Positions 38,301 through 44,300 of a DNA stretch of 64,000 nucleotides are shown here, piece after piece. A program made the position numbers. Every line of letters begins with the position of its first letter. The stretch's first letter is position 1. Source of the stretch: Escherichia coli (GTDB lineage Bacteria > Pseudomonadota > Gammaproteobacteria > Enterobacterales > Enterobacteriaceae); the NCBI RefSeq assembly GCF_044324785.1, contig NZ_CP172127.1. One strand, written 5' to 3'.

Positions 38301-41300
38301 GTGAAGTGAAGAAAGAGTACTGCGACCTGCTGCGCCGTGCTGACGCCATCTTCATTGAAGAACTGCGTAAAGCGGACCTGTACGACAAAGTCAGCCAGGC
38401 GTTCACCGTCTTCCTGCCAGTACGTTCTGTTGGTGTAATGGGCGATGGTCGTAAGTATGACTGGGTTGTTTCTCTGCGTGCTGTCGAAACCATCGACTTT
38501 ATGACTGCACACTGGGCGCATCTGCCGTACGATTTCCTCGGTCGCGTTTCCAACCGCATTATCAATGAAGTGAACGGTATTTCCCGCGTGGTGTATGACA
38601 TCAGCGGCAAGCCACCAGCTACCATTGAGTGGGAATGATTAACAGCTAACTCATAGCAACTCATTCCTATTCAGATACTAATTTAACCCTCTGTTTTTAC
38701 AGAGGGTTTTTGTTTTTATGTATTCATTTCTATTCACTCTACACCATATTTTTCGGCGGTACAGGTGACGGTATTACCTTAAAGGTATACTCTCATACCG
38801 TCATGAAAATGGTTTCTATACGGGTGAATTGTGCTTACCGATACAAAATTAAAAAACCTCAAGCCGCAGGACAAACTGTACAAGGTCTCCGATCGTGACG
38901 GGCTGTATGTAGCTGTGCTTACGTCAGGCACGGTCTCGTTTCGCTATGACTACCGTATCAACGGTCGCCGCGAAACACTGGTAATTGGGCAGTATGGGCG
39001 TGACGGTATCAGCCTGGCAGAAGCGCGAGAAGAACTGATTGCTGCAAAGAAGCTGCTTAAAGCAGGCCAGTCACCGGCTGCGGCTAAACGTGACGGTATT
39101 AAAAAGATTCGTGGTGCCGAGACGTTTGCGGTACATACCGACAGTTATATGAAACACGTCATCCTGGCTGACAGTACCCGCGCAATGAAGCAGGCGGTGA
39201 TCGACCGTGACATACTTCCGGTTCTTGGCAACAAAATGATGGCTGAAATTACCACATCAATGGTTCGTGATTTGTGTGACCGGATTGTCGAACGCGGTGG
39301 TCGGGCAACAGCAGTACAGGCCAGGGAGATCATCAGCAGCGTATACCGTCACGCCAATGACCGTGGTCATGGTTTGTTTAATCCTGCGGCTGACATTAAA
39401 CCTTCGTCTATCGCCATATTTAAACCACGAGAGCGAACACTGACACCAGAAGAAATTGGCCTGTTCTTCCGCACGCTGGATGCCATTGGTGCTATGGGCA
39501 CTATGAAAATGGCTTTAAAGCTGGTGCTTATCACCATGGTTCGTAAGGGAGAATTCACCAATGCAACGTGGGATGAAATAGATTTTAAAAAATGGACATG
39601 GACAATTCCTTCAGACCGCATGAAGGGAAGTCGGGCGCACGTTATTTACCTGCCTAAACAGGCACAGGATATATTAGTCGGGTTGCAGATGTGCGCTGGT
39701 GGAAGTGAATATCTGGTTCCTGGTCGTTACAATTTCCGGAAGCCATTATCTAATGCCGCGCTGAACTCTCTGATCGACAGAACGGTGAAAATAATAAATG
39801 AAGATGGTGAGCATATTCAGGACTTCACTGTACATGATATGCGCCGTACAGCCAGTACGTTGTTGCATGAGGCTGGTTATCCTTCAGACTGGATTGAAAA
39901 GGCTCTGGCACATGAGCAGAAAGGTGTGCGCGCCGTATATAACAAAGCGGAATACGCCAGACAGCGCGCCTACATGTTGCAGCAGTGGGCCGATATGATT
40001 GATTCCTGGATTAACGGGGAGCATACAGATCTGATTCCGTTCTCCCCGTCGAAGTTTGAGAAGTGGATAGCGGGGGAATAATTTTGCCCGACACATCCCT
40101 GTGCCGCCGTTCTGTCAGAAGAACCCTGCCTTGTCGTTGATGTACTCCGCGTGAGTCTGGATATCACGCAGGCATTTGCTCACACCGACGATGTAGCAGA
40201 ACATGGTGGTCAGCTCCGCCGCCGCGCCCGATACGTCGTGCCCGTCGTCCTGTAACTGGTTCAGCAGATTCATCAGCAGTGAGTGCTCCGTCAGGCCGAG
40301 AACACCAGACGGCGAGTGAATCAGGCTGCGGTAGCCGGGCTTCAGTGGGGCACTGTATTCTTTTTTGTCTTCCAGCTTGATCGCCTCCATAATGGCGGGC
40401 ATGAAGCCTGACAAGACCTTCTCCACTTTTGTTTCTTGTTGTCTTAAACGTTTCTCGCATTCAATGAAGTAGCGTCGTACCTGACGACCTTTTTCATTAC
40501 GCTCGACCATCGCCAGCTCTTTGGCTGTATCGAGGGTGAGGTGGTAGTCTTTTGCAGGACGGCCTCTGCCTATTTTTTCCCGAACTTGGGAAATAATCAT
40601 AAAGTCTTGATTTTCAACGAAACCATATTCAGCAATTCGTTCGACAATCCACGAAGCAAATCGCTTACCCACATCGAGGAAAGTGTGTAAATCACGGGCA
40701 TTAACGAGAAGAGCGGTTTCGTTGGATAGAGTGCCGTTGAATACGGGGATGAGTTGACTGGTCATGATGACCTCCTGTTTGTTTTTAGTTACGAAAACCA
40801 GTTAGTAGCTGGTGATCGGGTGTCAACTAGAGCACAAACAGTAGCTCCGGGCATATTCCCCTTTCGGGTGTTGTATTACGCCTCTCCACCCGACCTTTGT
40901 ACGGATGTGACTATGCCAGATTGCAGGCATAAAAAAGCCGCAAAGCTATCGGGTGCGGATGACCGCTGTTTGTTTTCTAGTGCGGTCAGTATGCGATAGC
41001 TCTGGCGGCATTGTCAAATCATGCGCCATTGAGTCCAGCAATCTCTGCAATACCAATAGCGAGATAATCGCGATTCGTCAGGCGTGATTTTATTGCATAT
41101 GTCTTAGCTCCACTGAAGTTTTGATTTTATATGGGTTGCCTTTTACCTCAATAACACGATGAGGATCATTTTTTAGTTCTTCCGCAATCTTCCGTAATTT
41201 TCTAACAGCTGAACTGCGGTGTTTATAACGGTAAGTTACAGTTTCTTTTCTGTGCAATACCTCATCATTGTGGAACTTAGTCAAAACCATGACGACTTCA

Positions 41301-44300
41301 AACCTGACGCCGTTGTGTGCAACCATAATCTGCTTCATGCTGCACGCTCCCGTCCCTGGTTGTCTGTTGGTGACAGCGGAGCATTGCTGAATGCATTTGT
41401 TAATCCGCCAATATCCAACGCGTATCCGGGGTGTAGTTGCACTGCCGGGTCTTCGCACTGATTACCCCAAACATCGAAGCCATGAGACGTCTGGCGGGCG
41501 AACAGTTCAATGCGAGAAACATCGCCTAACAATTGCACAAGTTTTTCACGAACGACATCTGGTTTTCTTGAATGCTCAAGCCGCGGTGCGGTAAATGACT
41601 GAACGATCCCTGCATTAATGCGCGGAGGTAGTTTTCCCTTAACTGCAAACAGGCAATCTTCACTATTGGCGCGAGTCATGTGTCCCATACCCATAACCAG
41701 TTTATCTGGTTGTCGACTACCACATTTTATCCACGTGAAGCCCTTCATGGTCATCAGACGGAACCCCCAGGCTTCAACAACTTTTAGTGCTTCGAGTGGT
41801 TGTGTTGGCACCCACCACATGGCCAACAGACAGTTTTCATCGGCCAAATCCCACACAGGAAGGCGGCAGATATCCATCACACTCATAACCGGATATTTAA
41901 AACCGGCACCGCGATTACCATCTGCGGCTTTGTCCCGGTATACCCAGGGTGGATCTGCATAGATTAGTGTGTATTTCTTAGTCATAAACCACCCCGCAAC
42001 ATCCTATACCGCTATAGTCTCCACGGCGAAGGCCGTTACCTTTTGTGATACATTGGTCCCTGCGAACCGCGATCCTTGCACGCTCAACATCACCAGAAGC
42101 AACATCCATACACTGAAGCCAAAGGTGAGCGGCAATGCGGAACTGCCCTTTTTTCTCTCTTTCAATCGCGCGTTTTTCGATCTCTATCGCCGCAGGAGTA
42201 ACGGCGACAATCTTTGACGGACTGCGCATTGAAACCTTATTCATGTGATATTTTTCAAGTCGGCTTAACTTTCTCACTTAATCCAACCCTCTCTGAAAAT
42301 TAATGCCAGCAGATAAAGCCATGCTGAAACAGAGGCCAGGAATAAGTACCATCCTGACCATTTGATCCAGTGCCTTAGCAGCGCACTCATGCAGCGTTGC
42401 TCACGGGACGATATACACGTTGCTGAACAGGAGGTTTTTTACCCTGGAACTCTGCCGGGCTTGCTGCCTGACGTTCATCAAGCCAACGCTCAACTTCATC
42501 ACGGTTCCATGCGCAGCGTTTATCGGTGATATACCAGCGTTTAGGAAATTCCCCTGCGCGCTCCATACGGTCGATAGTGCTCCATGACAGTGGCACCACC
42601 GCCAGGAGTTCTTTCTTACCTAATGCACCTTTCATGAATACCTCTCTTGGTTGCAGTGCGGCGCACGTGGCGCCGCGGTGGTGGTTACATAGATGTTTCG
42701 TTTAATTCTTCCCGACGAACGCTGTAAACGTCGGTTGCTTTTGCCAGCAGTTCGTCATCATCTGAAAGTTTTTGTGCAATGTATTTGTAAGCCTTATCCA
42801 GTTCGGAGACAGTGCTGTAATTCATCGCTGCGCTGGTAAAGGCCATCAGCATTTCTTCTGGATCACGGCTATCCTCTTTACGCGTTTGCTCATCAGGCTT
42901 TTTCATTGGTTTAGCGTTGATCAGACTGTTCATTCCCGCAGCAGTAGTTGTTTGCGGAGTAATGTCTCGTTCAACGCGCGGTGCCGTTTCCTGTAATTCG
43001 TCAGGGGTGTAAACACCGAGAAGTACATCAGGAGCGTGCAGGCGAGCCCATCGTTTCGTGCAAAGATAGGCAAGCTGCTGGCGCGGATCCTGTTCCCACA
43101 ATGGAGAGTTACGCACTCCGGCTTGCGCCATACTGATGGTAAGCTCACGTGGTTCTGCTTCTCCTTTAAGAACTGCTGACACAGTTACCGTCAGATTCGG
43201 TGATTTATCTGTTTTGCCGTTAACATTCGACCAGTCACCGCTCCAGCGATAATTCAGGCGTGTCGCCAGCAGGCTGGAAGAGGATACGACCGCGTTTACC
43301 AACTGTGCTTCGTAGCCTAACGTTCCGTTTACCACATGCGTTTTCTGCGCCACGGCGAAAGGGTTCATTCCCCACTGTGCCGCCTGCATGGTCACCGCCA
43401 GGCAATCGGCAGGTTTGCCTTCAAGATGTTTCGGTACAGTCGCTTTGCTTTGTGACATCAACTCAGCGAAACGCACCAGTTGATTCATGCCCTCGGGGCT
43501 GAAGATTGCCGCAGCAGTGCCTACAGTTGCGCCTGGTTGTGATGTGATTGCGATATCATTGCTCATACGTACATATCCTGTTTACGTGCCCAGTCAGGGC
43601 GTTTAATAATTTCCACTCCGCCCCACTCATCGTTGATGCGGCATTCGTGATAGGTATTCAGATCCCGGCGGAACAGAGCGTGCCCGGCATCGACATCCGG
43701 CGCATCCAGCTCGAACACGCGTACCGGATACCGACCACAATCAATGCTTTCGCTCACGGCAAGAAAGAAAAAACCATGCGGCTGACCAGTAACCCTCATT
43801 GCGCCTTCGCGGTACATTGCGTCCTGCACGTGGTAGCGGAATTCCTCGATGTGACGTGCAAAACGGTCCATATCTGCAACCTTTTTCACGTCGATGATCA
43901 CGTTGTGCTCGTTCAGCCATTTGTCTGGACGAATTCGGCACAACTCACCCGTCTCTTCATCGTTCCAGTACATTGACGCTTCGCAGTAACCAGGTGCTTC
44001 CAACATCCAGCGTGCCGCCGGGTGAGCCATTGCGCTATCACGCATCAGCTCCAGTTTCCGCCACTGCTCTTCATCAAGTACCGAAATACCCATATCCGCC
44101 ACATCACGAAGAAATGCCTCTTCGTCAGCTTTACCTTGTTTCGTCCGACGATCGAATTTCGGTGAAACAATGAAGCGTTTGTCGAACTCTCCAGGCTCCA
44201 GAAGCAGACAGTGCAATGCGGTTCCCATATCCAGTGCAGACTTTTTCTCTTCGTCTTCTGGTGCTGCCTGAATCCATTTAAGAAGCGCCGGATTCTTGGC

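Follow-up and report, generated by a model that had tools for sequence, protein, structure and literature searches.

Characterised relatives of the gene examined here are orphan methyltransferases (MTases) of the prokaryotic MT-A70 subgroup to which GATC has been assigned as the target. PhiBZS1_p32, the MT-A70 enzyme of Serratia phage BZS1, made DNA resistant to MboI and sensitive to DpnI in a dam-negative host, which marks it as GATC-specific, and its homologues, such as that of phage HK639 (75% identical), always lie near an integrase gene (PMC7556043). In the same study the phage MT-A70 enzyme is a class beta protein that shares no sequence similarity with the class alpha Dam of the host, and M.EfaBMDam, the MT-A70 enzyme of Tn1549, is reported as GATC-specific (PMC7556043). 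M.EcoGV, a prophage 'Dam homolog' of Escherichia coli O104:H4, is assigned GATC in Table 3 of PMC6602927 and in the passages of PMC10810198 that mention it, which also record GATC methylation in vivo when the enzyme is overproduced. Here we analysed a stretch of 64,000 nucleotides (nt) from E. coli (contig NZ_CP172127.1 of assembly GCF_044324785.1; hereafter the window), in which a prophage gene for an MT-A70 MTase lies between two small open reading frames (ORFs) that overlap it at either end.

A second line of work concerns M.EcoPA8orf6770P, the gp5 protein of the Stx2a phage phiPA8, which its authors, where they compare the two enzymes, call highly similar to M.EcoGV (PMC10810198). This protein forms a 1:1 complex with PNB-2, a winged helix-turn-helix (HTH) protein of 143 amino acids (aa) whose gene lies directly upstream and overlaps the methyltransferase gene by 4 nt. 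By itself M.EcoPA8orf6770P has hardly any activity in vitro, and the complex prefers 16S rRNA and 30S subunits (PMC10810198). In a follow-up preprint the rRNA function is linked to the shielding of ribosomes against Shiga toxin, and the two-subunit enzyme is said to occur in Stx2 phages only (10.1101/2023.09.20.558713).

The three genes in question, all read leftwards, are the following:
41335..41985, minus strand: MT-A70 (beta-class) MTase of 216 aa, predicted to act on the N6 position of adenine, with a core at residues 1-187 and a lineage-specific C-terminal tail at residues 188-216.
41978..42277, minus strand: PerC-family small protein; the longest ORF has 99 aa (GTG 42277), with alternative starts at ATG 42244 (88 aa) and ATG 42229 (83 aa).
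41090..41338, minus strand: basic ORFan of 82 aa, which opens a swappable cassette together with a small RNA (sRNA) and the antirepressor gene AntA.

A preliminary description of the window had placed three ORFs at these coordinates and had recognised in the middle one a methyltransferase with a DPPW motif and no adjacent restriction enzyme; our analysis bears this out. As the best overall explanation, we consider it fairly probable that the middle gene encodes an orphan Dam-like prophage MTase producing N6-methyladenine (m6A) in DNA, and that the small flanking ORFs are not its dedicated subunits.

The MTase matches Pfam MT-A70 (PF05063) over the full length of the profile (positions 1-172 of 172; 79.8 bits against a cut-off of 23.9, E 3e-22) and carries DPPW, the catalytic motif IV, at residues 11-14. 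These four residues line up with the DPPW of Tetrahymena MTA1 (PDB 7f4r) and do not vary in an alignment with the PA8 and HK639 enzymes. Additional matches were obtained to PHROG 359 ('DNA methyltransferase', 8e-120) and to PADLOC MTase_II (5.6e-77), and the Prokaryotic Genome Annotation Pipeline (PGAP) names the protein 'MT-A70 family methyltransferase' (WP_000163469.1). The full-length profile match and the DPPW motif thus assign the protein to the MT-A70 family, and adenine methyl transfer is its predicted activity. The pooled ratio of nonsynonymous to synonymous polymorphism (pN/pS) came to 0.13 for the MTase and 0.06 for the PerC ORF, which is under strong purifying selection; for the 82-aa ORF it was 0.87 among close alleles, from 17 substitutions only. 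The three genes are not taken for chance ORFs, and the MTase gene is intact and under selection.

The gene is already known: it is annotated in RefSeq and in phage phiV10, belongs to a known phage lineage and is common in E. coli. At a threshold of at least 95% nucleotide identity it is present in 537 of 5426 complete E. coli genomes, where it is always annotated as an MT-A70 methyltransferase. Its phiV10 counterpart, gp33 (PhiV10p33, YP_512288.1), is 97.7% identical and has the same 216-aa length and the same tail. phiV10 also shares the 8-nt overlap between the MTase and PerC genes and the order AlpA, 38-aa ORF, PerC and MTase beside a P4-type integrase, with gp34 (PerC-family activator) and gp35/gp36 as flanking genes. 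It differs after the ATGA at which the MTase gene ends: phiV10 continues with a DUF1382 gene and then the integrase, whereas the window continues with the 82-aa ORF, an sRNA-Xcc1 element and AntA. What had been noticed at this locus is confirmed; the gene is an ordinary one, and the small genes on its flanks are interchangeable neighbours. Annotated and common as it is, the locus itself is of little importance, and its usefulness lies in the comparison with the Stx-phage rRNA methyltransferase.

No restriction endonuclease adjoins the MTase, whose neighbours are the integrase, AntA, PerC, AlpA, RecT, a DUF3799 nuclease and the 82-aa ORFan, and the other 29 prophage ORFs that the window shows include no restriction-enzyme family. 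PADLOC likewise matches the MTase alone. The MTase is an orphan and does not belong to a type II restriction-modification system.

Over residues 1-187 the window MTase aligns without gaps to M.EcoPA8orf6770P at 83% identity (155/187), and it is 45% identical to the HK639 MTase (YP_004934065.1), which differs from it further by a 23-residue insertion after position 97. Kinship to M.EcoGV, PhiBZS1_p32 and M.EfaBMDam was traced through these two sequenced relatives together with the published descriptions, and the window MTase appears to be closely related to GATC-assigned members of the MT-A70 subgroup. PhiBZS1_p32, the HK639 enzyme and M.EfaBMDam share with it the prokaryotic MT-A70 subgroup and the orphan state, and the phage members lie near the integrase of a temperate phage. 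A GATC target is suggested because the enzyme is bracketed by GATC-assigned relatives at 83% and 45% identity. Modification of DNA at GATC is further suggested because Dam-type enzymes replace the MTase non-orthologously at the same position: in sister epsilon15-like prophages, PF05869 Dam proteins occupy the slot that the MTase fills in the window. The classical phage Dam enzymes (alpha-class Dam of P1, T4 and VT2-Sa; PF05869) would have the same probable function, orphan m6A methylation at GATC, but they differ from the window MTase in fold class and in the order of their motifs.

We propose that the MTase would be a Dam-like, GATC-directed DNA m6A methyltransferase that is repressed in the lysogen and, upon induction or infection, would be transcribed from a candidate PL-like promoter. 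Its substrate would then be replicating phage DNA, and the outcome of the methylation may be protection against methylation-sensitive restriction in new hosts, or full GATC methylation when the host Dam is outpaced. We infer the GATC target, the timing of expression and the anti-restriction role from sequence. Of the two roles offered in the preliminary description, anti-restriction or DNA modification stands as the most plausible one, while epigenetic regulation becomes a rival that is weighed below.

The gene upstream of the MTase matches Pfam PF06069 (30.1 bits against a cut-off of 22.6, E 6e-7), which places it in the PerC family, and PHROG 868 (5.7e-62); its match to the ANR family is weak and below the cut-off. 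The length of 99 aa that had been given for it holds for the longest possible ORF, but the annotated starts give 88 aa in phiV10 (ATG 42244) and 83 aa in PGAP (ATG 42229). PerC/Pch proteins are transcriptional activators that act on ler; for the phage-borne protein, transcriptional activation is a prediction from the family name.

From seven diverged PerC orthologues (62-84% identical) we obtained 13 loci (L169-L181) with the same RecT/AlpA/PerC...int backbone. The interval from PerC to int, which corresponds to 40082..41977 of the window, contains a DNA MTase in 13 of 13 loci, and the families that fill it are MT-A70 (7 loci), PF05869 Dam (3), PF01555 N6_N4 (2) and a fusion of PF00145 with Dam (1). 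Among the seven MT-A70-bearing sister loci, none has the MT-A70 gene directly beside PerC; a 52-aa DUF1317 gene separates the two, at times together with DUF1382, DUF4406 or an unannotated protein of 168-203 aa. The 3' end of PerC (GGGGTGGTKTATGACTAA) is conserved, and in the 8 junctions read (L169-L176) DUF1317 (MTN...) begins at the same ATGAC as the window MTase (MTK...); the orthologous MTase of L174 starts with ATGACC (MTG...). The arrangement in the window and phiV10 looks like a deletion of DUF1317 across a short shared sequence, and the MTase would abut PerC here because the usual next gene is missing in the window lineage. In this way the PerC 3' end (TATGACTAA) supplies the start codon of whichever gene comes next. 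Since PerC precedes four unrelated MTase families and never abuts MT-A70 in the 13 sampled loci, it appears to be a conserved backbone gene that borders a variable 'methyltransferase slot' and not an MT-A70-specific subunit. Other genes also stand between PerC and the MTase in three loci (L086, L088 and L092) of a survey across GTDB species. The interchangeable filling of the PerC-to-int slot by four DNA MTase families suggests selection for DNA modification there.

Downstream of the MTase, the 82-aa ORF encodes a basic product, as had been described (isoelectric point 10.2; 18 Lys and Arg vs 9 Asp and Glu). It has no match in Pfam, NCBIfam or PADLOC and matches PHROG 9805 (unknown function) only. 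One 91%-identical cluster was found among 5.8 billion proteins and three representatives among 1.84 billion, and the ORF is present in one phage record, HEMP4. Its sole informative distant homologue, 72 aa long and 55% identical, lies in an unrelated integrase-adjacent island that bears no recognisable MTase; because this homologue keeps the conserved pattern, the ORF is considered to encode a real protein. A longer downstream ORF of 122 aa (GTG 41458) was rejected: it would run 124 nt into the MTase gene, and the 82-aa start is the one consistent with PGAP, with the PHROG profile and with the homologues.

In 80 IMG/VR loci (L005-L084) whose MTase is at least 98% identical to that of the window, three classes of gene follow the shared ATGA, namely DUF1382 of the phiV10 type (about 49 loci), a gene annotated as serine/threonine phosphatase (25) and the 82-aa ORF (6). 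Across the 5426 E. coli genomes the 82-aa ORF is present in 18, vs 537 for the MTase (about 3% of carriers), and the arrangement of the window recurs only in about 18-22 E. coli genomes and in phage HEMP4. Within the window, this rare cassette of 82-aa ORF, sRNA and AntA, which replaces the DUF1382 of phiV10, is the sole unusual element. Conserved co-occurrence with MT-A70 combined with adjacency, as expected of a dedicated accessory subunit, was seen neither for PerC nor for the 82-aa ORF. The suggestion that the small ORFs are dedicated partners of the MTase finds no support in these comparisons, with PerC preceding four MTase families and the 82-aa ORF confined to one of three cassettes. 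We conclude that the 82-aa ORF is most likely an accessory ORFan with a predicted product, and not an MTase partner.

The overlaps themselves are real. The ATG of the MTase lies inside the last codons of the upstream ORF (TATGACTAA), giving the 8-nt overlap that had been noted, and its TGA falls together with the start of the 82-aa ORF (41338) within one ATGA, so that the junction, contiguous as described, is in detail a 4-nt overlap. Separate Shine-Dalgarno-like sequences precede the MTase (GGGGTGG) and the 82-aa ORF (GGGAG, 8 nt before it). The claimed coupling of the three genes is nevertheless not special, because overlaps of 4 or 8 nt occur at six of the seven junctions in the same operon, from the 104-aa ORF (44381..44695) through the 82-aa ORF; the overlapping 'coupled triplet' is the normal packing of the early-left operon. 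Mosaic breakpoints fall exactly on the overlapping start and stop signals (41335..41338 and 41978..41985; L005-L084 and L169-L176).

Some genomes seem to have lost the MTase. In one of them (H114, NZ_CP068680.1) only the last 79 nt of the gene remain, beside DUF1382, and in protein P0121 the N-terminal half of PerC is joined to a DUF1382 domain.

The tail of the MTase deserves separate mention. The Pfam MT-A70 domain ends at residue 176 and the protein extends over residues 177-216, an extension for which the preliminary description had offered the gene overlap as a possible cause. It is not an overlap artefact, because the overlap measures only 4 nt and the tail is kept in orthologues with different neighbours: the consensus PGYALD..AF.N.PL.P.D.QG.ERAA recurs in L174 (86% identical) and L172, which have different genes upstream and downstream. 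The first part of the tail, AVQL.PG.A.D, is common to the window MTase and HK639, and many relatives in other phyla are 172-190 aa long, without the tail. Its last codons also encode the Shine-Dalgarno sequence for the following cassette.

M.EcoPA8orf6770P resembles the window MTase in being an MT-A70 enzyme with DPPW, encoded integrase-proximally in a leftward prophage operon, and in a start that overlaps a small upstream gene. It differs in length (208 vs 216 aa) and in its tail, as the two proteins diverge completely after Pro-Gly 186-187 and their tails are unrelated beyond that point. phiPA8 is a Stx2 lambdoid phage and the window prophage is of Uetakevirus type; the upstream gene is PNB-2 in the former and a PerC-family protein without PNB-2 similarity in the latter. 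BLASTP of PNB-2 against the PerC ORF and against the 82-aa ORF gave no alignment, and tblastn over the whole window did not find a PNB-2 gene (best E 0.099); homology of either neighbour to PNB-2 was ruled out on these two results. The locus has neither the upstream PNB-2 nor the C-terminal 27 residues of the type found in Shiga toxin-producing E. coli that go with the two-subunit 16S rRNA MTase. The small specificity partner envisaged in the preliminary description therefore has a published precedent with an 83%-identical enzyme (PMC10810198), but neither neighbour here is related to it. HK639 does have a PNB-2 homologue, which the window lacks: HK639_37 ('regulator', L002 29972-30400, minus strand) is 55% identical to PNB-2 and lies two genes upstream of the HK639 MT-A70 gene. 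PNB-2-like proteins are therefore not confined to Stx2 phages, contrary to the literature.

Several points weigh against a Dam-like orphan enzyme. Purified M.EcoPA8orf6770P alone gave almost no DNA methylation in vitro (PMC10810198), and its authors argue, in the section on M.EcoGV, that the GATC activity of that enzyme when overproduced was possibly off-target (PMC10810198). In an E. coli host that is Dam-positive, methylation of GATC by a phage enzyme is redundant, the functions of the window MTase and of phiV10 gp33 are predictions from primary structure, and the promoter assignment is a consensus match only. The conserved tail of 29 residues (188-216) is unaccounted for by a GATC-MTase model. 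In the GTDB survey a PerC-like gene stands directly beside a diverged MT-A70 gene in Lonsdalea (L095) and in Kosakonia (L113); MT-A70 neighbours are otherwise extremely variable in that survey, and this adjacency could hint at a recurrent association of PerC with MT-A70. The ratio of observed to expected GATC was 0.73 in the prophage vs 0.79 in flanking host DNA, which is no contrast and is uninformative; over- or under-representation of GATC was dropped as a clue to the target for this reason.

On the strength of the phiPA8 system, the MTase could instead be the catalytic subunit of a two-subunit 16S rRNA MTase, targeted by PerC, the 82-aa ORF or a host protein that docks on the tail. We regard this as quite unlikely. 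It would make sense of the 83% identity between the catalytic cores, of the conserved tail that the window MTase has of its own, and of the PerC-like genes beside MT-A70 in L095 and L113; moreover, the phiPA8 homologue is nearly inactive alone and takes its 16S rRNA specificity from an overlapping protein encoded upstream, with the C-terminal 27 residues proposed by the authors to bind that partner (PMC10810198), and MT-A70 enzymes are commonly heteromeric (PMC7544214). Yet neither PerC nor the 82-aa ORF resembles PNB-2, of which the window is devoid, and the tails diverge after residue 187. PerC also precedes Dam, N6_N4 and C5 MTases and stands apart from MT-A70 in 7 of 7 sister loci, the 82-aa ORF accompanies only about 3% of carriers, and the preprint ties the function to Shiga toxin protection in Stx2 phages (10.1101/2023.09.20.558713), while no stx gene was seen in the prophage fragment. 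A variant of this idea, which we hold to be the least probable of the alternatives, takes the tail as a docking site for a targeting partner other than PNB-2, either the PerC-family protein or a host factor, with cores re-targeted by swaps of tail and partner. The phiPA8 authors suggest that their different tail binds PNB-2 (PMC10810198), and the PerC-family protein, being helical and ANR-like in its predicted protein-binding character, could serve as the candidate that docks here. If true, an exchange of tail/partner pairs would direct prophage MT-A70 cores to DNA or to RNA. The window MTase provides a natural control that can be used to ask whether the MT-A70 core alone is a GATC DNA methyltransferase: its core, 83% identical to that of the phiPA8 enzyme, is joined to a different conserved tail, occurs without PNB-2 and is carried by about 10% of E. 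coli genomes.

Two further alternatives keep DNA as the substrate. The enzyme might be a DNA adenine MTase with a non-GATC target or relaxed specificity that still serves anti-restriction, which we consider unlikely. Specificity is unreadable from sequence, several MTase families and presumably several specificities fill the slot in sister prophages, and prophage adenine MTases of relaxed specificity do exist, namely M.EcoGI/GII of E. coli (PMC6602927) and PhiOS31_p25 of Serratia (PMC7556043). However, PhiOS31_p25 is not the same enzyme as PhiBZS1_p32 (PMC7556043), M.EcoGI/GII have entries separate from that of the GATC enzyme M.EcoGV (PMC6602927), the characterised relatives from the MT-A70 subgroup in the cited papers are all assigned GATC, and the indel-free identity of 83% to an M.EcoGV-type core argues for the same target. 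It is very unlikely, in our estimate, that the MTase regulates host or prophage genes epigenetically during lysogeny, perhaps together with the PerC-family activator. Such a role would fit the effect of the phiPA8 homologue on spontaneous induction, the reported induction of gp6-gp5 near stationary phase (PMC10810198) and the naming of PerC-family proteins as transcriptional activators. It is difficult to reconcile with the position of the MTase deep in an operon downstream of the repressor and with a coding strand that, in a consensus scan, has no promoter-like site between AlpA and the MTase. Methylomes of E. coli O111 are also without an extra motif attributable to such prophage MTases (PMC6602927), and a GATC target, if that is what the enzyme has, would be masked by the host Dam.

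Apart from the orphan Dam-like MTase itself, the cassette behind it yields a testable lead of its own. It consists, beyond the 82-aa ORF, of two elements:
40806..40895, minus strand: sRNA-Xcc1 (Rfam) structured RNA; cmscan 64.8 bits against a gathering score of 53, E 2.6e-10, full model.
40115..40765, minus strand: AntA-type antirepressor of 216 aa; Pfam PF08346 8.2e-28, 'phage antirepressor Ant' in PGAP.

The sRNA-Xcc1 element lies between the 82-aa ORF and AntA, 41 nt upstream of the AntA start, and opens the antirepressor module. Its hairpin loop CTGTTTGT is complementary to ACAAACAG, which is found in two boxes, one upstream of the RNA (~40973..40966) and the other at ~40782..40775, immediately 5' of the AntA Shine-Dalgarno sequence. 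Stx phage 06-3462 (L003 1810-1899) also has sRNA-Xcc1 upstream of an antirepressor gene, and the comparison also takes in L004 4068-4151. In L003 the loop reads CTTTGAAG and both boxes read CTTCAAAG; compared with the window, the loop and both targets have changed together. Co-changing of the loop and both targets is the pattern of the c4 immunity RNA of P1/P7. Because the loop and both boxes change together between phages, the comparison suggests that phage sRNA-Xcc1 elements may be c4-like (P1 immI-like) antisense translational repressors of antirepressor genes. At the equivalent position in phiPA8, upstream of gp7 (an ORF6N protein), Rfam matches are C4 antisense RNA and isrK, and a study of APSE phage places sRNA-Xcc1 upstream of an ORF6N gene.

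The remaining genes and signals around the MTase are:
38831..40081, plus strand: P4-type tyrosine integrase, assigned from phiV10 synteny and PGAP; guaA is directly adjacent, at the prophage end.
42274..42390, minus strand: 38-aa putative membrane ORF between AlpA and PerC; PHROG 17484 'membrane protein', 2.5e-26.
42387..42635, minus strand: AlpA-family HTH protein of 82 aa, predicted excisionase/regulator; Pfam PF05930 3.1e-5, PHROG 66 'excisionase and transcriptional regulator', pN/pS 0.01.
42685..43566, minus strand: RecT; Pfam RecT 1.3e-31, in the recombination module (42685..44384) of the early-left operon.
43563..44384, minus strand: DUF3799 PD-(D/E)XK nuclease; Pfam DUF3799 2.3e-21.
44869..44897, minus strand: candidate PL-like promoter TTGACA-17-AATTAT; consensus scan only, 10/12 matches.

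The best megablast matches of the region are phiV10/epsilon15-like podophages of the genus Uetakevirus. The prophage adjoins host guaA, and in the near-identical E. coli chromosome NZ_CM163382 it likewise comes directly after guaA; there PGAP names the members of the trio 'PerC family transcriptional regulator', 'MT-A70 family methyltransferase' and 'hypothetical protein'. The gene order is that of phiV10 p31-p37, with the integrase followed by leftward MTase, PerC, 38-aa ORF, AlpA and RecT/nuclease genes. By these matches the locus is where the early-left (recombination/excision) operon of a phiV10/epsilon15-like prophage ends, on the side of the integrase. The phiV10 equivalent of the RecT and nuclease genes of the window is annotated as a RecE-RecT fusion. 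The 38-aa ORF is present in the phiV10 annotation and absent from that of PGAP, its pN/pS is 1.21 (16 alleles), and it may not be a real gene.

The candidate promoter sits downstream of the repressor-gene terminator (44968..44949), a position that agrees with phiV10, in which repressor, terminator and early-left genes are arranged in the same way. As a PL-like consensus site it would drive the early-left operon, a pattern match being no evidence of function. In the closest E. coli relative (L165 10280-11779) an additional 344-aa hypothetical gene lies between the 99-aa and 49-aa early-left ORFs, whereas the corresponding interval of the window (44381..44989) is without it. A tRNA-Arg gene (anticodon tct) is located within the late region of the prophage, at 55032..55108 on the minus strand.

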